From positions 22,145-86,144 of IMG/VR virus record IMGVR_UViG_3300046055_000032: a stretch of 64,000 nt of DNA, one strand, 5' to 3'. Made by a program: the position numbers and the translations under genes. Positions 35,833 to 54,677 of the stretch are shown here, in pieces. The stretch is from a virus. Taxonomy: Duplodnaviria > Heunggongvirae > Uroviricota > Caudoviricetes. Numbering within the stretch: position 1 is the stretch's first letter; every line of letters begins with the position of its first letter. The notes below the pieces were generated by a model. That model worked only from the letters and a program-made list of their open reading frames with translations, had not been told where the DNA came from and ran no database searches.

Positions 35833-37200
35833 TTACTCGACATAGCCGTATTGCCCGAAGCAGTGACCGTTCTCGCGCACCCGCGGCGGGCACTCCGGTT
35901 TCTCGACGTCAACGCCCCGCTCTCTCTGGAACGCCCACTCACCGAGCTTCTCGGCGTAGTCCAAGTACTGGGGATCGTCGTCGTTGTCGCCCTTGTAGAC
36001 GCCCGCGAAGTCCTGCGCCCACTCCTTGACTTCCTCGACCTGCTCGCTCATCACTTGGATCTCGGCCGGGACGCCATCGACCGTCACGACCACGTGAACG
36101 GCGCGATAGTAACCACCGGCTGGGTCCTCCCGAAACTTGTCGTCCACTTCGCGAACCTCAGCGCCTTCGGCGACGCTCCACTCTTGCAACCGGCGAACGG
36201 TCTGCTCCAGGTCGTCGGACGTGTCCGTGAGGACGCGCATCCCGATGATGTCGTCCATGTGCTCTAACGGATCGTCGTCGTACTCCTCCTTGCGATCCTC
36301 ACGTTTTGTCTTGAGCGACCCGGCATCCTTGAGGCGACCACGGGTCTTGGAACCCGAGAACGCTTCCCTCAAGGATGAGTGAAGGTCGTAGAACGGTTCC
36401 GTGAGTTGACCAACCCACTCGTCGTACTCGTTCTCGCTCGCGCCCATCTCTGGCGCGTCCTGGATGTGCTCCGCCCATGTTCGATCGAACGCGGGCGCGT
36501 GCTCGACCACAGCCTCCCGATCCTCAGCCGCCGCGAGCGCTTTCCGCCGATCGACAAACACCCCACCTTGCGGACCCTCGTGAACGGGAACGCCCTCGGG
36601 CACATCGTCTGGACCCTCCACGTACTGGCGATGATCGGGCGGTGGGAGATCGCCCGGGGTCGTTTGCGTCACGACGATCTCGCCAGTGTTGACGCCAACC
36701 TTCAGGAGCGATGTCTCGATCTCTTCGTTACGCATCGCCTCGAACGAGTTCCCGGTCGCCTGCCGAGCATCATCCAGCGATCCGTAGATGCTTACGTGCG
36801 GGTGATCGAGTTCCTGGTCGAACGCGTCGCGTTTCCAGTCAAGGTAAACGTCGCTCTCCGGGAAGTCAACCGCAACGCCCACGACCTTACCGTCCTCGTC
36901 GATGACCCGATAACAGGAACCATCCCCGAACCAGTTCCCGTCCTCTTGCTTCACGATCACTTCACCCGTCTCGGGATCAATGTCGTGATCCACGACCCTG
37001 TCAAGCGACACAAGCCCGTCCTCCTCGTCTTGTTCTTCGCGCAGCTGCTCCTCGAACTCGGACCCCGGTGCCTCCTCACGCATCCACTGACTTTTCACAG
37101 CGACGCGCTGCTCGACATCGCGTTGCTCGTCCCCGTCGCGTCTCCCCTCATGCAGCCAGTGAGCGTTCCTCTCGCTCTCACGCCAATCGATCGTGATCAT
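35833..37200 (-). CDS. RelA/SpoT-like nucleotidyltransferase (small-alarmone-synthetase/toxSAS-like) domain protein
   Basis: C-terminal SGSKTRGRLKDAGSLKTK...DDIIGMRVLT...GGYYRAVHVVVTVDGVPAEIQVMSEQ..W matches the GRVKs..Si..K / DliGiRii / YrSlHlvv...EiQiRT motifs of the RelA_SpoT synthetase fold; the start is set to the internal ATG that gives an ATGA overlap; carries the shared QYVEGPDDVPEGVPVHEGPQGGVFVD motif. Confidence 0.6.
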   Translation of the reverse strand: MITIDWRESERNAHWLHEGRRDGDEQRDVEQRVAVKSQWMREEAPGSEFEEQLREEQDEEDGLVSLDRVVDHDIDPETGEVIVKQEDGNWFGDGSCYRVIDEDGKVVGVAVDFPESDVYLDWKRDAFDQELDHPHVSIYGSLDDARQATGNSFEAMRNEEIETSLLKVGVNTGEIVVTQTTPGDLPPPDHRQYVEGPDDVPEGVPVHEGPQGGVFVDRRKALAAAEDREAVVEHAPAFDRTWAEHIQDAPEMGASENEYDEWVGQLTEPFYDLHSSLREAFSGSKTRGRLKDAGSLKTKREDRKEEYDDDPLEHMDDIIGMRVLTDTSDDLEQTVRRLQEWSVAEGAEVREVDDKFREDPAGGYYRAVHVVVTVDGVPAEIQVMSEQVEEVKEWAQDFAGVYKGDNDDDPQYLDYAEKLGEWAFQRERGVDVEKPECPPRVRENGHCFGQYGYVE

Positions 37201-39248
37201 ACCGGGACTGCCTCCTGCCATTGCTCGATCGCTTCCTCCCACGCCCGCTGGAACGCTGTCTCGGACGGTTCGTGAACATCGTCCAAACGGTACACGGCCT
37301 CTTCCGGGCTCGCCACGACGTACTCGGCTTCGTCGTCGAAAAGACCCGGGCCCGTCATCCAAGACGTGGCGATGTTCTCCACGGGAACGCGAGCACTCAG
37401 CACCACGTCACCGAAATCTTGCGCGACTTCCGGGTCGGCCGTCCACGATTCGAGCGCGCGATGCTGGACGGCCAGCTGCTCCTCGTTCCCTTCCTCTTTC
37501 GCGCGCCGTAGCTCGTCCGCGATCTCGCCACTGACGCCGCGGTACATTGTGACGGTGTCCGTGTCCGGGTCGTACGTCGGGTCCACGTCACGCACGAACG
37601 CTTGCGTGAACGCGGCCATGCGCGCCATGTGCTCGGCGTCCCGTTGCCCAACGCCAAACGACTCCGAGCGCTTCTGTTCCTCGGCCAGGATGCCGGGATG
37701 CACGAACGAGTTCCCGGTCTTCTGCACCGCCCACGCCCACATCGGTAACGTGGACGGTTCCTCAGGGCTCTGGCCCCAACTGTCCGTCGCGTTAACGGCT
37801 TCCGGGAGCTTCTCCACTAACTGTTCCCCGATCTTACTGTAAAGCGGGCCGGCGTGCAGTTCCTCGAACGTTGATGTCTCACCGATCGTCACTTCGTCAG
37901 CGTTCGTCTTGACCAGGTTCTTGAGATGCGACGACGCGGCCTCGCGGTAATCCGTTTCGTCGAGGCGTTCCCGGATCGCGTCCCAGTCGATGCCGTCCAC
38001 CAGCTTTTCGCCGTACTGTTCCGCGTCCTGGATCGAGACCGTCTCGCTCACGCGGCTCGATTCGTGCGCCGCGTCGCTGGTCTCGACTTGCTCCGACGCG
38101 ACGTCGTGACCCGTCGCGGAAACGTGCCCGCCGAGACCGGACGGCGTCTCGAAACAGTGACCCGGCACGTCACAGTACTCTTCACCCTGCTTGTGGATGC
38201 GCGTCATCTGTAACTCGGCACCGACCGGCGCGTCGAGCAGCTCCGAAACGTACCGTCTCGTTTTCCCGATGCCGTCCGAGTCAACGTCCCGGAGACGATC
38301 CACCCACTCGTTGCGGACAGCGACCGCCTCTTCGTTGTACAGTTGCCAGCGCTCCTCCTGGTCCATGATGTTAACGTTCTCGCGCGTGTAGGTGTCACCG
38401 TCCGGGTCCCCAGCGACGAGCACCTCTGCCTCCTCACCCCCGAACAGTCCCGAGGACAGCCAGGAACCAATAACGCGCTCCACGGGAACGCGCGTCGAGA
38501 TGACGACGCCGTGGTTGTCCTCGGCAAAGTTGCCCGCCACGACAGGGTTGGCCGTCCACGACTCCACTGCCCGATGCGTGACGTCCGCTTCGTCGGTCGA
38601 TGGGCCCACGCCCGAGCGGATGAGTTGGTCAAGCTCTTCCTGAAAGTGCTCCGCGCCCGTGCCGCGGAACACTTCGATGGTGTCGGTGCCCGGGTCGTAG
38701 GTCGGATTCCACTCCCGATGCAACGCTTGGTCCAACGCCGCCGCCTGCTCGAACTGTTCAGCCTGCTCGGGCGACAGGTCGTGCTCCGCCACTTCTTCCT
38801 CCACGTCCGGGTGAAGCTTGTCAACGCCGTACTTCTCGCGCGCCCACGCCCACACCGGGACCGTCGCCTCGCTGTTCGGCCAGCCGCCGAAACGGTTCAG
38901 CGCGTCCGGTGTGACGTCCTCGATCTCCCCGGGCGCTTCGACCAGGCGGAACGGTTCCTCGAACTGTTCGTACTCCTCCATCGTCATGCGGGAGGGATCA
39001 AGGCCGTTCTCCCAGTCGGACAGGGGCGCTTGCTCTAACCGTTCCTGCACAGCGTCACGGTACCCTTCTGCAAGCGTCGCCGGTGATGCGCCTGCGACAC
39101 CTGACGACTCGGCTTCGTCCTCATCAACGCTCCCCTCCGACTCGTAGTACAAGCCACCGCGCGGTCCTTCATGGATCTCGACGCCGTTCGGCGCTTCCGA
39201 AGGATCGTCAATGTAGATGTTCGCTTTCGCAGCGCGCTTCCCCGTCAT
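37197..39248 (-). CDS. protein with two tandem ADP-ribosyltransferase-like (R-S-E) domains
   Basis: Two homologous roughly 170-aa segments, each with FRG/YRG (Arg), ESWTA (S-x-T) and GGEEAEVLV / DDEAEYVV (E-x-E) in the order and spacing of ART toxins; N-terminal shared motif IYIDDPSEAPNGVEIHEGPRGGLYYES. Confidence 0.55.
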   Translation of the reverse strand: MTGKRAAKANIYIDDPSEAPNGVEIHEGPRGGLYYESEGSVDEDEAESSGVAGASPATLAEGYRDAVQERLEQAPLSDWENGLDPSRMTMEEYEQFEEPFRLVEAPGEIEDVTPDALNRFGGWPNSEATVPVWAWAREKYGVDKLHPDVEEEVAEHDLSPEQAEQFEQAAALDQALHREWNPTYDPGTDTIEVFRGTGAEHFQEELDQLIRSGVGPSTDEADVTHRAVESWTANPVVAGNFAEDNHGVVISTRVPVERVIGSWLSSGLFGGEEAEVLVAGDPDGDTYTRENVNIMDQEERWQLYNEEAVAVRNEWVDRLRDVDSDGIGKTRRYVSELLDAPVGAELQMTRIHKQGEEYCDVPGHCFETPSGLGGHVSATGHDVASEQVETSDAAHESSRVSETVSIQDAEQYGEKLVDGIDWDAIRERLDETDYREAASSHLKNLVKTNADEVTIGETSTFEELHAGPLYSKIGEQLVEKLPEAVNATDSWGQSPEEPSTLPMWAWAVQKTGNSFVHPGILAEEQKRSESFGVGQRDAEHMARMAAFTQAFVRDVDPTYDPDTDTVTMYRGVSGEIADELRRAKEEGNEEQLAVQHRALESWTADPEVAQDFGDVVLSARVPVENIATSWMTGPGLFDDEAEYVVASPEEAVYRLDDVHEPSETAFQRAWEEAIEQWQEAVPV

Positions 39249-40647: not shown

Positions 40648-42699
40648 TCACCGACCCCCACCTCCTTGGCCGCCGCCGAGACCGCCGCCTTGGCCTTGTG
40701 GCGCGCCGCCAAGACCGCCTTGCCCGCTACCCATGCCGCCGCTGGGGAGGCCTCCCATGCCGCTTGAGCCGCTGCCTTGCCCGCCGGGCGATGCGTCCGG
40801 CACGTCCTCCGGCTCGACCGGGAACTCGAACTCGCCCGTCTCCGGGTTCCGGCCTTTCGGCGGGAAACCGAGCTGCTGCATGGACATCGCGAAGTTCGCG
40901 CGCATCGTTTTCTCCTGCAACTGCTGCATCTCGTCCTCTAACTCGACCGGCGCCAACTGTAACTCCCACTCGTTAACGCTAACGCGCCCCTCACCGTCGC
41001 ACAGACCGCACTGCTCGTTGTCGAAGCCCTCCCATTTGCTGCGCTCCTCGCACTCCGGGCACGGCAACCGGATCAAGTTCAACAACGCCGGAAAGATCTC
41101 TTCGTTATAGATGCACTGTCCCTTCTTCGCGCCGAGTAACGTGACTTGCCATTGCGTGGGGCCCTGGTTCTGGAGACCGACCGCGTCCACGTTCCCGTGA
41201 AACACGGGCGCCACGTCGTACGCGCTCCCGATGCGGCGATAGAACTCGTCGCGGACTTGCTCGAACTGCATCTCCTCCGGCAGCCGCGAGAACTCCATGT
41301 ATTGCGGCATCGCGGAACTGTCACCCGGATCGAAACCGAACTTCGGCACGTAATGACCGTCCTGGCTCACGTTCCGATCCTCCGCGCTTTTCCACATCGC
41401 CTGCACGCTATCCGGGTTCCGCGTCGGGATGAACAACGCGCTGCGCGGCATACGCTCCTCCTCGTAGAACGTCCGCATGAAGCGCTCCATCGAGAGGAGC
41501 GTTTTCGCCATGTCGTAGACGCTCACGAGCGGGGACGTCCCGTACCCGTAACTGGGATCGAACTTCGTAGCGTGCACGACCTCGCCCGGGAAACCGCTCT
41601 CCGGGTCCGGTCCCACGTAATACTCGACGATGTTCTCGCTGCCGCCACCCTGCTGACCGGTCGAGGAGCCGCCCGTACCGGGCTCCACGGCCACCCACCA
41701 TACCTCGTGCAGCTTCCGCCCGCACTGCTCGCACTCGCCCGGTTCCTCGTACACTTTCCCTTGACTCGGAACGTTACCGACGCTCCCCGGCGACGGGTGC
41801 GAGTACGCGTCCTCGTCACCGTCCGCGAACGGTTCGCGCCGCCACTGTTCCGAGCCGTCATCGTAACGGTACGCCTCGTCTGGTCGTGGTCTGTGACGAA
41901 GACAAATCCAGTACCGTCCACCGGGCGTCATGAGGCGCGGATGAACGACTTTCTGGAAATTGCGCGGGTCAGCAACGAACACTTCGCGCGTGATCCAGTC
42001 CTTGATGTGACCGTCCCCGTCAATGTCGTAATCGGCGAGATGAATCATCAAGCCGTCGTCCACGATGTCGAGATGCTTCTCGAAGATGCGGAGCGCCGTC
42101 ATGAAGTCGTGACCGTTCCGATCCACTTTCTCGAAAAAATCCTCGACGGCCGCCACGACGCGCCGATCCGGTTCCGCGAACCAGTCAACGTCCGGCGGGA
42201 AACGTACGCCCTCGTCCGTTTCGACGGGCTTGTCATCGTCGCCAGGCATCGGGCCGCTCGGGTCCTCCGCCTCCCCTCCCCCGGGACCAGCGGGCGCCGA
42301 CTCGCCGCTCACACCGCTTGGAGCAGCGTCCTCGTTCTCGCGCTCGGTCTCGTACTCGTTCGCGTCCAGTGCGGTATGTGCACCGCACTCCCGGCACCAG
42401 TCCGGTTCCTCGTCCACGCCGTACTCTTCACGGCACACTTTACATTTCGCGCCGTACGTTGGCTGCCATTCGTAACCGTTCATCAGGATGGTGTCCCGCA
42501 ACGCTTGAACGCTTTTACGAACGGCATTGTTTTTACGGTACAGTTCGTACAGTTCGTTGATGCCAACCTCACCGAACCCGTCGCGATTCAACGGTCCGGC
42601 ACGGTCGCGCTGCAACGGGCCCGCGCGCCGATCCGGCATCACGCCACGCGACGCGAGCCCGGCCTTGAACAAGCGAGCCGTTCGCGACCAATCAACCAT
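40648..42699 (-). CDS. portal protein with embedded Zn-ribbon inserts and a Gly-rich C-terminal tail
   Basis: 683 aa; lies between the terminase and MuF/protease genes; CKVCREE...CRECGAH, CEQCGRK, CPECEER...CGLCDGEG inserts; C-terminal (GGxG)n. Confidence 0.7.
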   Translation of the reverse strand: MVDWSRTARLFKAGLASRGVMPDRRAGPLQRDRAGPLNRDGFGEVGINELYELYRKNNAVRKSVQALRDTILMNGYEWQPTYGAKCKVCREEYGVDEEPDWCRECGAHTALDANEYETERENEDAAPSGVSGESAPAGPGGGEAEDPSGPMPGDDDKPVETDEGVRFPPDVDWFAEPDRRVVAAVEDFFEKVDRNGHDFMTALRIFEKHLDIVDDGLMIHLADYDIDGDGHIKDWITREVFVADPRNFQKVVHPRLMTPGGRYWICLRHRPRPDEAYRYDDGSEQWRREPFADGDEDAYSHPSPGSVGNVPSQGKVYEEPGECEQCGRKLHEVWWVAVEPGTGGSSTGQQGGGSENIVEYYVGPDPESGFPGEVVHATKFDPSYGYGTSPLVSVYDMAKTLLSMERFMRTFYEEERMPRSALFIPTRNPDSVQAMWKSAEDRNVSQDGHYVPKFGFDPGDSSAMPQYMEFSRLPEEMQFEQVRDEFYRRIGSAYDVAPVFHGNVDAVGLQNQGPTQWQVTLLGAKKGQCIYNEEIFPALLNLIRLPCPECEERSKWEGFDNEQCGLCDGEGRVSVNEWELQLAPVELEDEMQQLQEKTMRANFAMSMQQLGFPPKGRNPETGEFEFPVEPEDVPDASPGGQGSGSSGMGGLPSGGMGSGQGGLGGAPQGQGGGLGGGQGGGGR

Positions 42700-46472: not shown

Positions 46473-47966
46473 TTACACCACCAAATCCAAGTCCGCGTTG
46501 TCGATCGCGCTCACACTGGGACCCGTCGCGAGGCTCATCGCGCCGTAACGTAGCGCGTCCATCGTGTGATCGTCCTTGTCCTGCGGCGTTTCCTTCGCCG
46601 GCTCGTCCTCGCCCGTTTCGGGGTAATGGTACCGGCGGATTTCGCGCTGCACGTTCTCGCACCGTTGCGCTACCATCAATCGCGGCAACCCGTCGTCTTG
46701 GATCGTTAACCGGCTCGTAACTTCCTGGATGCCCGGCATGATCTCGTTGTTCGCGCCCTCGCTCGGGAACCCGATGCGCGCCATTTTCTCGATCTCGTCC
46801 GGCTCGGACGGGTCACATACCATCGTGCCGTTACCGTGTTTGGCGACCCAGTTCTCTCGCACCCAGCGCCCCATCTCGGCGGCGAGCGTTTGCGTTCGAT
46901 AGTACTCGTCCGCGATGATCATGCGGCCGTCACCGTCCACGAGGCACAGCAAACACACGATCGGGTTCTGGTACCCCCAATCCACGAAGTAGCGTATGTC
47001 CTCCGGCCGGAAGCGGCGGTCGTTCGTGTGATCAACCCACGCGCCGTACTCGTCGTCGTACGAGAGATCGATGACGTGCGTATCGACCGAGAACCCCGGG
47101 TACACGAGACCTTCCAACTGCACGAACTCGCCGTGGATCTCTTGCGCCGCGAACTCGGAATCGCCGTACGTTCGTCGCAAGCTGCGAAGGTACTCGTCAC
47201 TCAACCACGGATTGTCCGTCGCACTCACGCGCACCCAATCGTACCCGTCCGTGGCGTCCTCGCTCGCGAACCGCTCGAACAGCCAATTGTGCCCGTTCGG
47301 GGTCGTCGTCACGACGCCACCTTGCGGGTAACCGACTTGCCGCAAACGCCCCACGATCACGTTCCAAGCGTCCGCGCTCGCGAACGCTGCCTCGTCCACG
47401 TGAAAGAACGCTGCGTCGATGCCGCGAAACGCGTCGTCGGGGTTCGTCGTCGTACGGAAATACACGTCACTGCCGTTCGTGAGGACGGTGTGTTTTTCGC
47501 CCTTGTTTCTACTGTGTAGCGCGAGCGGGTGCAGCACGTTAAAGAACGCCGGGATCGTGCTGGACATCAACTGCTTGTAACTGTTCGCGGCCACGATCGC
47601 CGTCAATCCCGGATGCTCGATCAACCACTTCACCGTCTCCGCGCAGCCCGTCAACGTTTTCCCGGACCCCAAACCGCCAACGAACGCCGCGAAACGGATG
47701 TCTTGTTCATCGTCCCGGACGCCATCACACAGCGCGTGAAACGCTTGCTGTTTCTCGTGCGGGTTCTCGTCATGCCAGGGATCGTAACCTTTCCCCTCCA
47801 ACGCATGATGCCAATGCCAACGATAGTTGCTCGCAACTAACCCAGCACGCACCAATTCTGCCTCGCTCGCACTCGACGAAACATGCTTCGGCTCACGCCG
47901 AACTGTATCCGGGAACTCCTCACGGAGCGACGTCCGCATCACTGTCAACTCCCTCGAAACGAGCAA
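46473..47966 (-). CDS. terL: terminase large subunit
   Basis: 497 aa; Walker A GLGSGKTLTG; ATPase plus C-terminal nuclease-like acidic residues; adjacent small subunit candidate. Confidence 0.8.
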   Translation of the reverse strand: MLVSRELTVMRTSLREEFPDTVRREPKHVSSSASEAELVRAGLVASNYRWHWHHALEGKGYDPWHDENPHEKQQAFHALCDGVRDDEQDIRFAAFVGGLGSGKTLTGCAETVKWLIEHPGLTAIVAANSYKQLMSSTIPAFFNVLHPLALHSRNKGEKHTVLTNGSDVYFRTTTNPDDAFRGIDAAFFHVDEAAFASADAWNVIVGRLRQVGYPQGGVVTTTPNGHNWLFERFASEDATDGYDWVRVSATDNPWLSDEYLRSLRRTYGDSEFAAQEIHGEFVQLEGLVYPGFSVDTHVIDLSYDDEYGAWVDHTNDRRFRPEDIRYFVDWGYQNPIVCLLCLVDGDGRMIIADEYYRTQTLAAEMGRWVRENWVAKHGNGTMVCDPSEPDEIEKMARIGFPSEGANNEIMPGIQEVTSRLTIQDDGLPRLMVAQRCENVQREIRRYHYPETGEDEPAKETPQDKDDHTMDALRYGAMSLATGPSVSAIDNADLDLVV

Positions 47967-48480
47967 TAACTTCCTCCGCGCGCTCCGGGTCCTCTTTCGC
48001 CAACTCCTCGACGAGAATATTCACGCTCTCGTCATGCTGCTCAACATTCGTCTGCTGCAACACGAGAGAAAAATTACCTTGTTCCTCAAAAAAGTCTTTA
48101 TTATTATGCCACCAGCCCGTGATGCGCGACTCGTAAAACTGCATCCGCTCGAACGCCTCCCCGTCACCCGACGCCTCAAACGCCTCCTCCGCCTCATCGT
48201 ACTTCCGCAAAAACTTCTCTAACCGCCGACGAGCCGTCTTCTGCAACTTACGCAACTCGTGCGCCATCCCCGCCTGCACGATCTCGTTCGTCCCATCCCC
48301 CAACCGCGACAAGAAATGCCCAATCGTTCGCGGATCAACAAAGACTGACTCCGTCTCCCTTAAATACTCCGTAACCTCCCCCGGCTCCATACCCTGACGC
48401 GTGCACTCCAAGATCTGCAAATGCAAACCCTCCCGCTGCAACTCGCTGATACGAACCTGCGGAAGGTCCTCCTCACTCAT
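47920..48480 (-). CDS. putative terminase small subunit
   Basis: 186 aa acidic helical protein immediately upstream of terL, overlapping it by 47 nt. Confidence 0.5.
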   Translation of the reverse strand: MSEEDLPQVRISELQREGLHLQILECTRQGMEPGEVTEYLRETESVFVDPRTIGHFLSRLGDGTNEIVQAGMAHELRKLQKTARRRLEKFLRKYDEAEEAFEASGDGEAFERMQFYESRITGWWHNNKDFFEEQGNFSLVLQQTNVEQHDESVNILVEELAKEDPERAEEVIARFEGVDSDADVAP

Positions 48481-48868
48481 CGCACCATAAAAGAGACCAA
48501 GTCCCCTATCAAACCTTGCCGACTTTAGTTAGCTAAAACATCGGGTGACGGAAACGCCAACACGACGAGACGGCTCCGATCACCGCCAACACGACGCGAA
48601 ACAAGAACGCAACAGATCACGTCACGACGACCGCGACCCTGTCGACCGGTGACGAGCAGCACCCTGCGCACCGAAACACGGACGACACAACTCCGGGTTC
48701 CGGCCAACGGTTCGCTGACTGGCGTCGTACCACTCGCCGCAGTTCGAGCACCGCCTCACCCCCGCAGATCCTCCCTATGGCAGTCCTCGTCAACGGGCGG
48801 TCGATGCCAAGTACTGCATCTCACGCACCATTCCTGACGCTCGGCTTTCCCCTCCCCACTAACGCTCA

Positions 48869-49174
48869 TCACTCACGCACCTCCTCGTTGAATGTTCGAG
48901 CCTGCTCGGCGATCCCCGCCGCCCCCTCGTCACAGCCGCCAGCCTCGCCCACGTCTTCGAGGCGGCGCAAGTCTCGCCGCATCGCCTCCTCGGGATCGTC
49001 ATCCCCGATCCCGTGGCTGTGTATGAGGGCCTGAACCACCTTGTGGTAGCAGGCGAGGCGACGAGCGGCATGGACCGGGCGCCCCTCGATCTCGTGCAAC
49101 GCTTCCTCAGCGTTGGCTCGCAGCGGCAGCGCAAGTTCGTTGACCTGCGAACGCTTTCCCCCGTCCTCGCTCAT
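48869..49174 (-). CDS. hypothetical (101 aa)
   Basis: ORF. Confidence 0.45.
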   Translation of the reverse strand: MSEDGGKRSQVNELALPLRANAEEALHEIEGRPVHAARRLACYHKVVQALIHSHGIGDDDPEEAMRRDLRRLEDVGEAGGCDEGAAGIAEQARTFNEEVRE

Positions 49175-49382
49175 GCCGTCACCACCTCGATCTTGGCGCC
49201 GGTCGGCGCGAAGACGTCACTCGCAAGACCGCTGCGCCGATGCTCATCCCCGCTCGCCGCAACCAGCGAGACGACACCGGTCACGCCACCACCTTCGAGC
49301 CGTCGCGCCCGCGGTCGGTTACCGACTCCCCCTCGCCGCCGCGGAACGTCGATCGTGATCGAGAGGACATGGTTAGCGTCTC

Positions 49383-49652
49383 CTACGTCACCTTGAATGT
49401 CCCGAGCACGGGCTCGAACACGCGCCCCCGCCCCAACAAAGCGTTCACGGCCTCTTCGACTGCTTGTTGGCTGAACCCTTGGCCGGTGAAGTGCTTCGCG
49501 ATCTCGTCGTAGGTCACGCCCGCACCGTCGTCGTGCTGGTCACAGTACGCAACGATGCGATCCCCCAACGGCCCCTCATCGACCCTCGGCCCGCGCACGG
49601 GCTCCTCGTTTGATTCACTCACACTCTCGAACGGGTGGTCGTCACTCATCAT
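49383..49652 (-). CDS. small winged-helix-like DNA-binding protein
   Basis: 89 aa; VTYDEIAKHFTGQGFSQQAVEEAVNALLGRGRV helix-turn-wing pattern. Confidence 0.45.
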   Translation of the reverse strand: MMSDDHPFESVSESNEEPVRGPRVDEGPLGDRIVAYCDQHDDGAGVTYDEIAKHFTGQGFSQQAVEEAVNALLGRGRVFEPVLGTFKVT

Positions 49653-49770
49653 GTGTCACTCCACGTGTGGATCGCTCGCATCGGGAAGCAACGCTGCCAG
49701 CAAGCCATTGAGCGGCTTCTCACGGCCGCACCCCCCAGCCCGCCCTCCCCCTTTCCCTCACGAGAACACC

Positions 49771-50390
49771 TCAAAACCACGCCTCCACCTCCCGCAGCGC
49801 ATTCTTGCGCTCCAGCACGAGACCCAACGCTTCGAGCGCCGCGACATAGTCAGCGTTAACGTTCTCGGCGCCGAAGGTCACGATCGCGCTCGCGAAGCTG
49901 GCGTGCCCATCCATCTCGCCCACGAAACCGACGCGATGATCAACGAACGTGAACAGGTCCGCGTCATTCAAGTGCTCGTGCCACCGATCCGTGGACGTGG
50001 CCGCAGACACCAACGCGGTGATAGTGTTGACGTCATCGCGCTCCGCTTCGCGAGCCATCTTGTCAGCCCACGGGTCGTTGAAGCGGCGCCCGTACGGCGG
50101 ATTCACCCACACATGCCCCCCCCCCAGGACTGGGCGAGCCCGTCAACGACGCGACGCGTGACATGTGCGAAAGGATTGGCGGGCGAGCCCCACTCCTCGC
50201 TCGGAACCGTCGGGGTGCAGTCGTTGTCGAGGGTCCAACGCTCGGCAGCGATCGGCGCCGGCTCGCACCCGGATGCGGGATCGAGGTCGAAACCACCGAG
50301 CGCGGCACCCAACGGCTCCCAAAGATAGCGAGGCGTCGCCCACTCGGGACCAGTGCCGTGCTCGCCGTAAAAGTCCGTTCCGTCACTCAT
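49771..50390 (-). pseudogene. phage Dam-type N6-adenine DNA methyltransferase split by a frameshift in a G10 (plus-strand C10) homopolymer
   Basis: N-terminal part (50103..50390) EWATPRYLWEPLGAALGGFDLDPAS resembles the Dam (PF05869-like) N-terminus and ends SWGGGMCG-stop; the C-terminal part (49771..50112) starts VWVNPPYG with the catalytic NPPY; an 8- or 11-G tract would fuse them in frame. Confidence 0.6.
50116..50125 (-). repeat. C10/G10 homopolymeric tract inside the methyltransferase gene
   Basis: acatg-cccccccccc-aggac. Confidence 0.9.
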
Positions 50391-50651
50391 CGTAGCTCTT
50401 CATCGCCGCAACTCGGGCAACCATCACTAAGCCGCTCGACGGCTTCCGGGGACCGGATCGGAAAGGTCTCCCCGCCATCCCGGCAGGTGACGTCGCTGGG
50501 GCTCGAATGTAACCGGGCTCGGTGAAGGTCATGCCAGAAACCCATCAATCACTCACTCTCCGCGACCGTTCCGTGGTGGGATCTCGGTCGTCGGCCCCGG
50601 TGATGCGCATCTCGCCGATGACGACCGGGACGCCGACAGCGACGTCACGCC

Positions 50652-50997
50652 TCACTCCCATGCCATCACCACGTCCGTGACGCCCAACCACTCCTCGATG
50701 CGCCGCTGCACGTCACGCGCAACGGCTCGCTCGTCGTCCGATAACAGCGACCCGTGCTCCGGTCGATCCTGAACGAGTTCCTCGTACCAAGAACAGTGAT
50801 CCCGTGCCCACGTCCGCAACGCTTCCTCGCCAACGTTCACGCGCTTCGCCGCGTCCTGCAAGGTCTCTTCGTCCGCGAGAACCCGTAACCGGTACTTGAC
50901 GTCGTCCTCAGACAACGCGCCCGCGAACGTCGGGCCCGCCAAGTACTGTTCGACGTCCGCTGGCACGTCACGCTCACTCTCCATCGTCATCACGCCC
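50652..50997 (-). CDS. hypothetical (about 115 aa)
   Basis: Internal ATG (MTMESERD) of track ORF 50652..51278. Confidence 0.4.
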
Positions 50998-51453
50998 GAT
51001 GCCGGCGTCGCGCGCCCGCTGCAACGCGGGTTGCGCCTCTTGGCTGATGGCGCCGTTCCGTGACCAGGCCGCGACGCGAGCCAGCGTGGCGTAGAGGTCC
51101 TCGGCGGTGCGCTCGTATTGGTCGTCATGCTCGTCCTCCACGAAACACCACAAGCACTCGTACCCGGTTCCCGTGAACGGTGCATCGAGCAGGTGCTCGC
51201 GGCACGCATCGTAACGGATGGTCGCGTTCCCGCGACGATCGGGGGGTTCAGTCTCGTCGCGGAGCACGTCCACGACACGCAACATTAACTCGGGCAACCC
51301 CCGCATGGGAGGGTGAGTCATCTCCTCGGGACGCACCTTCCCCTGCAACCATCGAGCCTGCTCCTCTAACCAGTCAAGATCGTTGGGGGACAAGAGCCTG
51401 CGATCGTGAGATCCTCGAACGGGGTCCGCGTTCTCGTGTTCGTTACTCGTCAT
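50974..51453 (-). CDS. hypothetical (159 aa)
   Basis: ORF. Confidence 0.4.
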   Translation of the reverse strand: MTSNEHENADPVRGSHDRRLLSPNDLDWLEEQARWLQGKVRPEEMTHPPMRGLPELMLRVVDVLRDETEPPDRRGNATIRYDACREHLLDAPFTGTGYECLWCFVEDEHDDQYERTAEDLYATLARVAAWSRNGAISQEAQPALQRARDAGIGRDDDGE

Positions 51454-51611
51454 GGGTGTCCTCCGAACAAGCGTTCACGTGATGGTGACCAGACAACAAA
51501 CGTTCAGCGACGTCACTCACCACCAGCTCGATCGCCGGATCGCGGCCGACGAGTGCGTTCTTGCATACAACGACGCCTCGCGCCTCTCCAGGTGTCGGAT
51601 GCTCGTGATCG

Positions 51612-51887
51612 TTAGTCATCGTCAGTGTCCTCCTCTCGTTGGCGTGCCTGATACATCTCGCGGGCGAAGTGACAGAACAGCGCTGGTCCGTGAACAATGA
51701 ACAGGAACATGCCAAGCGCACGCCAAAACATGACGTCGCCAACGAACCATTGCATCGCGTACAGGACGGCCGCGCACAGGAACGTGACGCCGCTCACGAG
51801 CAGGAACGCTTCCCCGAAGATGCGCTGCTCCCGCGGACTGTACGAATCAGTGACCATCCGCGACTCCGATCCGTTCTCGTGCCGCAT
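51612..51887 (-). CDS. small membrane protein
   Basis: Internal start; FLLVSGVTFLCAAVLYAMQWFV and ALGMFLFIVHGPALFCHF helices. Confidence 0.4.
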   Translation of the reverse strand: MRHENGSESRMVTDSYSPREQRIFGEAFLLVSGVTFLCAAVLYAMQWFVGDVMFWRALGMFLFIVHGPALFCHFAREMYQARQREEDTDDD

Positions 51888-52367
51888 GACAAGCCTCGCA
51901 ACGGAGCTGAAGCATGTCGCGCAACCGGCGGATCTCGTGGACGAGTCGCAAGCCGTCGTCCACGCTGAGATGCATCCCGTTGTCCAGCTTCGCCGCCAAA
52001 CGGTCAAGGACGTCCCGGGTAACGGGTTCGTGCTCGTCTACCGCCACGTGACGTCCCCTCCGTAACGGCAGAGTCGAGCCTGCCATGCGCCGTTGCGATC
52101 CATATGATGTTGCAGCATCGCGCTCGTCCCGAGGGAGCAGCGACAGACCCCACGAGGAACGCTACTCATCCTGCCCCTCCACGAACTCGGCGCGCAGACG
52201 GCGCAGATCCTCGAACTCCTCCGCGAGCACCACGTCGTTGCGTTGCCCCGACTCGGGGGGGCCGATCCTCGGCACCGAAACGTTCACATTGAAGCGCGGC
52301 GTACGCGATCTCCGTTGCCTTCTCAACGATGCGCAAGTAAAGCGTACTGTCGTCCCCGTACTCGGGA

Positions 52368-52736
52368 TCAACCATCATGTTCCTCCGTGGGTGGGTCACT
52401 GTACGTGGCGCCGCCGGCGCCGACGCGCACCTTCACGATCGGGCTTTCCGCGTCCGATAACAAGCTGCTGGGCGGGCAGCGCCGCAACAAGTTATCCACG
52501 ATGCCTTTCGTCGTCATCGCGCCACCGTGGCGCAAGAACGCGTTCATCAGGCCCAGGACATGACAGGCCTTGTCGCCGGACTTGGGTCCGTCAGGGTGCT
52601 CGTGATCGTGGACATGGAACGATCCGTTTTCGCTCCACCAAAAAGTGTGACGACCGCACCAGCAAGTGGTCGTGGGATCGTCCTTGCGAGCGTTACCGAT
52701 GAAACCGCACGCGTCACAGTACAGGAGCTTCGTCAT
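52368..52736 (-). CDS. Zn-ribbon protein (122 aa)
   Basis: CDACGF...CWCG. Confidence 0.45.
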   Translation of the reverse strand: MTKLLYCDACGFIGNARKDDPTTTCWCGRHTFWWSENGSFHVHDHEHPDGPKSGDKACHVLGLMNAFLRHGGAMTTKGIVDNLLRRCPPSSLLSDAESPIVKVRVGAGGATYSDPPTEEHDG

Positions 52737-52808
52737 CGCGACCCCCCGAACGAAACGAAACCAGGCTGGCGGTGCGGGGGGGTCGCCATGCAGCGCTCAC
52801 GAGTCACG

Positions 52809-53069
52809 TCAACGGGGGTCGTTGTCGTCATGCTCACCCTCCGTCCCATCAATGGTCGCCACCCAATCCTTGGGCTCGATGCGGAGCCTCGTGACGCCCC
52901 CGTCGTCCTTCATAGCGTTAACGAGCGCGTGACGGTCCAGACGCACGCAAACCACGTCCCGTGAGTCGCCGGCGTGCTCGGGCGGGACGAACCCGTCATC
53001 GAACGTGACCAATACGTGCTCGTCGTCGGCGGCGATCGTGGCCGTGATCGGTTCGTTCTCGTCAGTCAT
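52809..53069 (-). CDS. hypothetical (86 aa)
   Basis: ORF. Confidence 0.4.
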   Translation of the reverse strand: MTDENEPITATIAADDEHVLVTFDDGFVPPEHAGDSRDVVCVRLDRHALVNAMKDDGGVTRLRIEPKDWVATIDGTEGEHDDNDPR

Positions 53070-53524
53070 GGGTTAACGCCTCCACGTCGCAGCGATGCAT
53101 CGTAATCCATGCCCTTTACCCGCCCGCGGGACGCGTCCGCGTCGACCTTCGCGCCCCCGTTGTCCTTCGCGTCCATGAGCGCGTCAATCGCTTGTTGGGT
53201 GCGTTCCCGCATCCTGTGCGCGGCATCGCTGAGAGTGCGCGAGCTGTCGTCAGGCACGTCGATCGTTTCCGTGACGTCAGGGTCCAGCGCCTCGATGCGA
53301 TCCCGGCGCTCCCCCAACGCCTCGATGGCCACGAGCCATTGCTCCCGGAACGCGAACGTCCAACGATCATCGTTGTCGAGAGCGTGATGGTGACGGTACA
53401 GGAACAGGCACGTACCGGCCGGGTCACCGACGCCCAGCTCGTCATTGATGCGGCGGTACAACGCTTTCGCCAGCGCCTCGCTGGGTCCCGGGTCCAAGTC
53501 CACGACCACGTACGGGTCAGTCAT
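53066..53524 (-). CDS. hypothetical (152 aa)
   Basis: Internal ATG (MTDPYVVVDL) giving an ATGA overlap with the upstream gene. Confidence 0.45.
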   Translation of the reverse strand: MTDPYVVVDLDPGPSEALAKALYRRINDELGVGDPAGTCLFLYRHHHALDNDDRWTFAFREQWLVAIEALGERRDRIEALDPDVTETIDVPDDSSRTLSDAAHRMRERTQQAIDALMDAKDNGGAKVDADASRGRVKGMDYDASLRRGGVNP

Positions 53525-54381
53525 GTTGCTCCTCCAACTCGTTCTCTCGCGTCGGTTCGTCGCGCGCAAGCCCGCGGTTCGCGGGCGAGGACCTCGTCTA
53601 TCGCGAACTCTATGGCCCAGATCCACGGGTTGTCTCTCCATCGGAGTCCGTCCTCGTCGTAGGTCTCGTTCCATCGCCGTCGAAAACAAGCGATGGGGAT
53701 CTGCTCAGGCCGAGTGATGTCGCGGTGATCATAGTCAGCAGGAACAACGCCCTCAGCGTAAGCGTCCTCGCGCGACATCTCGTTTAGGCGCTCGACGCGG
53801 ACGTCGGTGACGTGCAACCAGATACGGGTCGCCCACTTCGGCATGTGAATGCTCGGCCGCCAACCGAACTCGTCCTCGTCGTAATCGAGCAGATGCCCGG
53901 GATCCTGCTTGTAGAACTCTTCCGCGAACCATTCCACGATCTCGGTTTCCTGTTCGTCGGTCCAATCAGCGTTCTCGGGATGCCGATACGCGCCGTCGGC
54001 CCGATAAACGATGACGGGCGCACCGCCACCGTTCTTGATCTCGGTCCCGGCGCGGTGCGTTTCCCGCACGTACGCGCGATCACCGGCTTGCACGATCGGG
54101 CAAAGAGACGCGGCGTGGTCGTGCTCGGGCCCACGCCCCGGATGGTCCGTTTCCAAGACGATCATCGTTCCCTCGCCGCCAGGCAAGTGACAGGACCACC
54201 AGACGCCCGAGTAATCGTTGCCGGTGATCGAGTCAACGCGCTCGAAGCGCTCCGGTTGCGGTTTTAGAGGGCGCCGCGTTTGGGTCTTGCGGCCGTCAAG
54301 GATGCCGCGAACCGAGCGAGCGTGGAACCGAAGCGGGCGCTCGCGGAGCGTGACGAGTTCCGTGAGGGAGGCGTCGCTCAT
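53521..54381 (-). CDS. ASCH/PUA-like domain protein
   Basis: Internal ATG; N-terminal RSVRGILDGRKTQTRRP and GDRAYVRETH match the common phage ASCH-domain family opening (..AIL.GRKTQTRR.. / GD.lwVRE). Confidence 0.5.
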   Translation of the reverse strand: MSDASLTELVTLRERPLRFHARSVRGILDGRKTQTRRPLKPQPERFERVDSITGNDYSGVWWSCHLPGGEGTMIVLETDHPGRGPEHDHAASLCPIVQAGDRAYVRETHRAGTEIKNGGGAPVIVYRADGAYRHPENADWTDEQETEIVEWFAEEFYKQDPGHLLDYDEDEFGWRPSIHMPKWATRIWLHVTDVRVERLNEMSREDAYAEGVVPADYDHRDITRPEQIPIACFRRRWNETYDEDGLRWRDNPWIWAIEFAIDEVLAREPRACARRTDARERVGGAT

Positions 54382-54677
54382 CAGACCCTCGCTCGCGTGA
54401 TGATGCGAACCCACTTGTCCAGGAGCTTCGTCGATTCCGTCGGCGGCTCCGGCGGCGCCGCATCGAGAGATCGGATGCGCGCGCGCAGCGCAGCGTTCGT
54501 GCGCCGCAACTCCCAGCTCGCTTGCACGAGATCCGCAGGCTTGGTGACGTGCAGGTCGTGACAGTACTCGCGTAACGGTCCCGGGAGCGCGTTGATGTTC
54601 TCGGGCGACGGCTCCCAATCCGGCGGGATCGTGACGGTGCGCGGACCTTGACGTCTCGTCGGGCTGCCCAGTGTCAC
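54381..54677 (-). CDS. hypothetical (98 aa)
   Basis: ORF. Confidence 0.4.
   Translation of the reverse strand: MTLGSPTRRQGPRTVTIPPDWEPSPENINALPGPLREYCHDLHVTKPADLVQASWELRRTNAALRARIRSLDAAPPEPPTESTKLLDKWVRIITRARV

Follow-up and report, generated by a model that had tools for sequence, protein, structure and literature searches.

The question raised by this locus is why a virus should carry a DNA methylase gene whose two halves lie in different reading frames and meet exactly at a long run of G's. The stretch of DNA analyzed (the window, 64 kb in length) is part of the genome of a tailed haloarchaeal virus. It has 62.5% G+C, encodes acidic proteins, and includes genes for the terminase large subunit (46473-47966, minus strand), the portal (40648-42699, minus strand), and a baseplate-like protein akin to those of the Haloarcula viruses HCTV-2 and HHTV-2. 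The methylase gene belongs to a tightly packed operon of small genes upstream of the terminase, since its ATG overlaps the TGA of the preceding gene (ATGA), which encodes a small CxxC protein of 53 aa (50387-50548, minus strand). The same arrangement is found in the one close relative described below. A small orphan enzyme upstream of the terminase is also found in halovirus Hardycor1 (PMC7911831).

The tract occupies positions 50116-50125, which read C10 on the plus strand and G10 on the coding minus strand, and it is the site of the frame break, encoding W-G-G-G as TGG GGG GGG GGC. The N-terminal half is a 95-aa ORF in frame 0 (50103-50390, minus strand) that runs from the ATG at 50390 to the TGA at 50103-50105 and ends ...AQSWGGGMCG*. 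The C-terminal half is a 113-aa ORF in the -1 frame (49771-50112, minus strand) that runs from a GTG at 50112 to the TGA at 49771-49773 and opens with (M/V)WVNPPYG. The list of ORFs also contains one at 50143-50343 (minus strand) that terminates in the frame of the C-terminal half. Between this -1-frame stop (50143-50145) and the frame-0 stop (50103-50105) lies a 40-nt zone, 50103-50142 on the minus strand. As both frames are open there only, the halves can be joined only by a slip inside this zone, whether in DNA, in RNA, or on the ribosome. The tract is flanked as GGGCTCGCCCAGTCCT(G)nCATGTGTGGGTGAATCC. When its length was edited in silico, G8 gave a single 205-aa ORF (...SWGGHVWVNPPYG... / ...AQSWGGHVWVNPPYG...) and G11 a single 206-aa ORF (...SWGGGHVWVNPPYG... 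/ ...AQSWGGGHVWVNPPYG...), and these were the only two lengths to do so, with G9, G10, and G12 all leading to an early stop. The joined product would be a protein of 23 kDa that reads AQSWGG(G)HVWVNPPYGR across the junction. The initial annotation had described two Dam-like halves in different frames that meet at a G10 run, are fused by 8 or 11 G, and with 10 G terminate after SWGGGMCG; its coordinates and ORFs are exact, and tract editing reproduces both fusions.

The tract is unusual for this genome. It is the sole homopolymer of at least 8 in the window, where G/C runs of lengths 4 to 7 number 283, 60, 12, and 6. This is a drop of about 4-fold per added base, and therefore only about 0.08 runs of 10 or more would be expected in the window. 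Across 25 large ORFs, GGG-GGG is used at 1 of 99 Gly-Gly pairs, compared to 5.6 expected (Poisson p = 0.024). The virus avoids G-runs in its coding sequence, and the G10 tract exceeds chance expectation. As in contingency loci, the repeat lies within an ORF and is far above the genome background.

Only one close relative was found, a virus contig from another sample (JGI sample 3300046050, run SRR18079259), referred to here as L001. L001 and window 57181-48774 are collinear, with a nucleotide identity of 87-98%. In L001, too, the methylase gene falls into two ORFs (94 and 113 aa). Its tract, in the same position, is G7, and the flanking sequence is identical over at least 12 nt in both directions. 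Tract-length polymorphism between relatives is a comparative-genomic signature for calling contingency loci, and such a polymorphism with conserved flanks is seen here between two lineages (G10 and G7). Since G7 is G10 minus 3, the break has the same -1 phase (3n+1) in the window and in L001, and a -1 shift or one added G would join the halves in either genome. Were the phases random, two alleles would both be 3n+1 with a chance of about 1/9.

Homopolymers are error-prone, and the true tract could be in frame (G11 or G8) and the gene ordinary. Both G10 and G7 are one base below an in-frame length, and coverage or quality is poor just downstream, since a G-rich stretch there is an N-gap in L001. 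However, window 47103-53390 (6,288 bp), with its G10, is matched at 100% identity by a 29,980-bp contig from the Logan assembly of SRR18079251. An assembler artifact is unlikely because this second assembler gives the same G10, which weakens the assembly error that the initial annotation had offered as its alternative. The two assemblies probably come from the same reads, so a systematic error at the read level is made unlikely rather than excluded. The relative from a different sample is out of frame as well, and its N10 scaffold gap suggests short-read data, in which case consensus errors at a G7 would be improbable. We consider a sequencing or consensus error an improbable explanation of the break.

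No further close relative was recovered in scans of IMG/VR with the fused protein, two DNA patterns, and the terminase, in metagenome contigs searched by alignment and DNA pattern, or in genome contigs searched by DNA pattern. Three loci from these scans (L002-L004) are distant, in frame, and without a G tract. Exact-protein look-ups of the N-terminal half, the C-terminal half, and two neighbors returned only one Logan contig from one run, and the terminase cluster led only to the L001 sister contig and a short Logan contig without the methylase. A terminase locus that is 64% identical (L007) is without a Dam gene, and no GenBank phage matched the region by megablast. Within the protein and contig collections searched, there was no in-frame (ON) allele, only 3n+1 (OFF) lengths.

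The fused protein matches Pfam family PF05869 (Dam) at 50.5 bits (cut-off 28.1) and PHROG 111, "DNA methyltransferase", at 5e-27, each as one stretch that spans the junction. Alone, the C-terminal half scores 32.5 bits against PF05869, and the N-terminal half has no match. The score against NCBIfam TIGR01712 (phage_N6A_met) is 40.2 bits with an equivalog cut-off of 97.05, and the protein is thus a relative of this model and not an equivalog member. A tblastn search of GenBank phages gave 148 records, and the best 30 of the 148, which are the matches listed, each cross the junction in one piece; the top phage match among those listed is Haloferax phage LSV-48N at 38% identity. Identity to any intact relative found is at most 49% by BLASTP local alignment. 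In an alignment of 40 sequences, W17, P20, F34, L36, D37, W89, N96, P98, and Y99 are invariant, and all are kept here, as are G84, L85, and W107, which are also on the alignment's list of invariant or near-invariant positions. The N-terminal half bears an EWATP motif, the FDLDPAS strand (motif I), and an insertion specific to the clade (about 25 aa, lying between motifs I and IV). The catalytic NPPY (motif IV) is in the C-terminal half, together with the remainder of the Rossmann-like core. The family patterns behind these motifs are EWxTP, FxLDP(A/C), and (N/D)PPY. In its matches to PF05869 and PHROG 111, its three motifs, and its invariant residues, the protein thus resembles the phage Dam family (PF05869/TIGR01712), and it differs from that family in the frame cut by the G tract, the clade-specific insertion, and the TIGR01712 score under the cut-off. 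Profile and motifs are those of a PF05869 member, whereas the single uninterrupted polypeptide is absent. The description of the gene as a Dam-family adenine methyltransferase broken by the G tract only is supported.

We also examined the fused protein with an AlphaFold2 model (pLDDT 84, pTM 0.80). In this model, the N-terminal half contains a helix at residues 21-30 and strands at 34-37, 48-53, and 79-81, and the break falls at residues 89-92, directly before the strand that bears NPPY (91-95). Because the break falls just before this strand, with motif I in the N-terminal half and the catalytic motif in the C-terminal half, neither half is predicted to be a complete enzyme. A fold search returned only generic class I N6-adenine methyltransferases (RlmJ, CAPAM, and CamA, with TM 0.4-0.5), and a sequence search of the PDB returned nothing relevant and no solved structure for the Dam family PF05869.

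Two incomplete halves could in principle be translated separately and assemble into an active heterodimer, with the C-terminal half initiated at the GTG that overlaps the stop of the N-terminal half by 10 nt. Consecutive genes of this operon overlap by 8-17 nt as a rule, the GTG starts are conserved in the window and L001, and the 3-nt difference between the tracts leaves both ORFs intact. Split C5-methyltransferases also exist, including M.AquI and M.EcoHK31I. Nevertheless, the modeled break lies inside the core sheet, directly before the NPPY strand, the other family members examined are all continuous at this site, and a stable split gene needs no long mutable homopolymer at its junction. 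A naturally split enzyme appears to be the least probable of the explanations considered.

The rest of the Dam family is continuous at this site. The 38 other family proteins in the 40-sequence alignment are uninterrupted across the junction, and 47 further GTDB genomic loci have no frame break at the junction site, although one of them (L028) has a possible frame break near the N-terminus. The W-x-G site could be placed in 40 loci, and none of them has more than 5 consecutive G's there. On these grounds, we rejected the idea that the whole family is split or recoded at this point. The long tract and the break are peculiar to a small clade, since they are absent from the other family members examined; the frame relation at the tract is the same in both of the two close relatives and is found in none of those other members. 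Haloarchaeal relatives read W-x-G-x-VWVNPPY, which is exactly the spacing of the G8 product, and bacterial relatives read W-G-G-x-x-V[WF]VNPPY, which is the spacing of the G11 product. Judged by these spacings, the proteins from both ON lengths would fit the family.

Selection on the two halves was measured between the window and L001. In the C-terminal half, 18 of the differences are non-synonymous and 21 synonymous, which corresponds to a dN/dS of 0.215 at a dS of 0.33 (Fisher p = 6.5e-6); in the two alternative frames, the dN/dS of this stretch is 1.2-1.8. As dN/dS is low in the Dam frame, the catalytic half has been translated in that frame for most of the time since the two lineages diverged. 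An old pseudogene shared by both genomes is ruled out by the C-terminal value. For the N-terminal half, the dN/dS of 0.49 is not significantly lower than 1 (p = 0.15), and the replacements lie mostly within the clade-specific insertion of about 25 aa when the translations are compared by eye. On the evidence of the C-terminal half, the gene is otherwise under purifying selection, like a contingency locus.

A recent loss is a different matter. Here, slippage at a mutational hot spot would have inactivated the gene separately in each lineage; the gene would no longer be in use, and reversion would be irrelevant. Both alleles are OFF, dN/dS is blind to a recent event, and the N-terminal half lacks a significant signature of constraint. 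Further small genes carry a frameshift in either the window or L001, in one case at a homopolymer. There, C7 on the coding strand at window 52255-52261, compared to C6 in L001, breaks the gene for a 70-aa acidic protein (~52162-52378, minus strand) in the window; this gene is intact in L001, and the C7 is also present in the Logan assembly. At L001 4373-4708 (corresponding to window ~52810-53069, minus strand), a 1-nt deletion puts most of a gene out of frame, and its window counterpart is an intact 86-aa acidic ORF. Slippage-type indels are a common mode of change in these populations, which raises the prior for hypermutability and for plain decay alike. Simple mutational decay has a real prior because frame-disrupting indels are not rare in the window and L001 genomes. 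The methylase gene, however, is without a second lesion in either half of either genome, all of its conserved residues are intact, and its C-terminal half is strongly constrained over a dS of 0.33. Two independent hits at one site in an otherwise undamaged gene would imply either very recent loss in both lineages or continuing use. We regard plain recent inactivation as possible, though unlikely.

The shared phase may also be explained by recoding, programmed or merely tolerated, rather than by mutation. In this case, the genome is always in the -1 phase, and a low, set level of enzyme is made by -1 frameshifting on G_GGG_GGC and/or by RNA polymerase slippage that adds one G, so that the tract is a dosage device and not a DNA switch. 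The frame relation is the same in both genomes even though the tracts differ by exactly 3 nt. G_GGG_GGC, in frame 0 at the 3' end of the tract, is an X_XXY_YYZ heptamer in both genomes and is followed by identical sequence, with a zero-frame stop three codons after it; this match is formal only. A -1 shift on the G7 would give WGGHVW, exactly the spacing of the haloarchaeal relatives, and purifying selection acts on the C-terminal half even though the frame is broken. There is a precedent in the herpesvirus thymidine kinase, in which frameshifting on a run of G's compensates at a low level (PMC5009743), and -1 programmed ribosomal frameshifting has been inferred in haloarchaeal tailed viruses (PMC8211752).

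Conversely, no stimulatory structure was found. The 60-100 nt downstream fold with z of 0.1 to 1.2 relative to shuffles, and the sole hairpin common to both genomes starts about 17 nt past the tract, farther than the 5-9 nt expected of a classical stimulator. Heptamers made only of G are also poor -1 shifters in tested systems. Transcriptional slippage calls for a homopolymer of about 9 or more, a length that the G10 of the window reaches and for which the G7 of L001 is too short. Other genes of the family (the 38 aligned proteins and 47 loci) have no frame break at the site, and a phase shared by only two observations would arise by chance about 1 time in 9. Recoding is thus an unlikely account. 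A stronger form, in which the shared -1 phase is no coincidence and the clade keeps its methylase permanently out of frame, with slippage on the pure G-run giving a small set amount of enzyme and a fraction of progeny genomes methylated, seems less likely still.

The explanation that we tentatively prefer, at somewhat less than an even chance, is a real hypermutable tract that toggles a functional Dam-family gene and is OFF in both lineages sampled. We rank this DNA-level switch first because the tract length is polymorphic with conserved flanks, coding capacity is kept on both sides, the ON lengths fit the family, the run is unusual in a genome that avoids runs, and the gene is of a suitable class. 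In this mechanism, replication slippage would alter the length of the G-tract. G8 and G11 would give the full-length enzyme (ON), while G7, G9, and G10 would give a truncation after the AdoMet-binding half (OFF), which is the current state of both sampled lineages. The gene would stay intact because ON variants are selected often enough. Changes in tract length would be frequent and reversible, and ON alleles would be present in the population. OFF genomes may still produce some leaky full-length protein through slippage of RNA polymerase or the ribosome on the run, which is likely for G10 and would be compatible with a switch.

The phase-variable switch of the initial annotation is therefore retained in part. 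The G10 and G7 tracts with identical flanks and the purifying selection on the C-terminal half favor it, but no ON allele was found, and both alleles are OFF in the same phase, in a sample of two lineages only. Slippage by the ribosome (-1) or during transcription, or a recent loss that struck each lineage separately at a mutational hot spot, explains this shared 3n+1 OFF phase equally well or better. In addition, G7 is short for a fast switch. A literature search found no experimentally shown homopolymer phase variation and no homopolymer-switched methylase in an archaeal virus, and no report of this methylase locus or of run SRR18079251.

Homopolymer-switched methyltransferases are a textbook bet-hedging device and are well known in bacteria. 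The poly-G/C phase-variable methyltransferase and restriction-modification genes (phasevarions) of Helicobacter, Campylobacter, and Neisseria resemble the present gene in that a long G/C run lies inside the methyltransferase coding region, the tract length differs between close relatives, particular lengths restore the frame, and the gene is otherwise conserved. Unlike these, the gene here is from an archaeal virus rather than a bacterial chromosome, encodes an orphan Dam-family enzyme rather than one of Type I, III, or IIG, and is known from OFF alleles alone. We consider the locus a well-founded candidate, and an archaeal virus with a homopolymer-switched methylase would be a new setting for a known bacterial device.

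In another virus of haloarchaea, phiCh1, the virion population is only partly methylated, and we know of no homopolymer or frameshift in its methylase, M.phiCh1-I. By description rather than by sequence comparison, phiCh1 is similar to the virus studied here in being a haloarchaeal tailed virus with its own adenine methyltransferase, M.phiCh1-I being described as the Dam-like methyltransferase of this Natrialba virus (Baranyi et al. 2000, cited in PMC13076061). A viral gene that is out of frame in a run of G's is also seen in the thymidine kinase of herpes simplex virus, where a one-base change in the G-run still leaves some full-length protein through slippage on the run (PMC5009743). That case concerns a eukaryotic virus under drug selection, whereas here the same out-of-frame phase is found in two lineages and is known from sequence alone.

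The benefit of a switch would depend on the target of the enzyme. PamA, a Dam-like enzyme of a Staphylococcus prophage, methylates GATC (PMC12435837), and the tblastn matches to Staphylococcus phages suggest that it belongs to PF05869. The enzyme encoded here may methylate GATC-like sites as well. Classical restriction systems are known from haloarchaeal hosts, as are Mrr-type enzymes with GA(m6)TC as their substrate, and Haloferax Mrr cleaves GA(m6)TC DNA (PMC7776575). Since Haloferax Mrr cuts such sites, methylation can shield the virus from one class of host nuclease and expose it to another, which holds if the target is GATC, as for PamA. The benefit would then be hedging between classical restriction, against which methylation protects, and methylation-dependent Mrr-type restriction, where methylation is lethal. 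If the switch is real, a virus that flips its own Dam-type methylation gains a plausible advantage in haloarchaea. If recoding is at work, mixed methylated and unmethylated virions would be produced by recoding, in a domain with very few known recoding events. Plain decay or a read error would make this an ordinary annotation problem.

GATC itself occurs in the window as often as expected (501 sites observed for 501 expected), with neither avoidance nor enrichment. Its density of about 7.8 per kb is far above that reported for Haloferax chromosomes, and CTAG is nearly absent (2 observed, 15.6 expected). A G-quadruplex-like sequence, GGG AAA GGGGG A GGG C GGG CT GGGGGG, lies at window 49731-49757 on the minus strand, 14 nt 3' of the methylase stop, and the N10 assembly gap of L001 is precisely at this spot. 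Immediately upstream of its methylase operon, L001 also has 2.6 kb of inserted DNA (L001 6817-9391) that the window lacks. This insertion has genes for a 415-aa SMC_N/AAA ATPase and for a 298-aa protein with a PEP-utilizers domain. At window 54478, within a minus-strand gene at ~54380-54677, (GC)4 is found in place of the (GC)3 of L001, and this difference gives two alternative C-terminal tails on a protein of about 100 aa. Shortly downstream of the portal, with one 325-aa ORF between, the window encodes two proteins with toxin-type domains (35833-39248). The 683-aa protein (37197-39248, minus strand) has a C-terminal DRAT-like ADP-ribosyltransferase domain, and the 509-aa protein (35833-37362, minus strand) has a RelA/SpoT nucleotide pyrophosphokinase domain. 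Both resemble the head-associated polymorphic toxins of phages.
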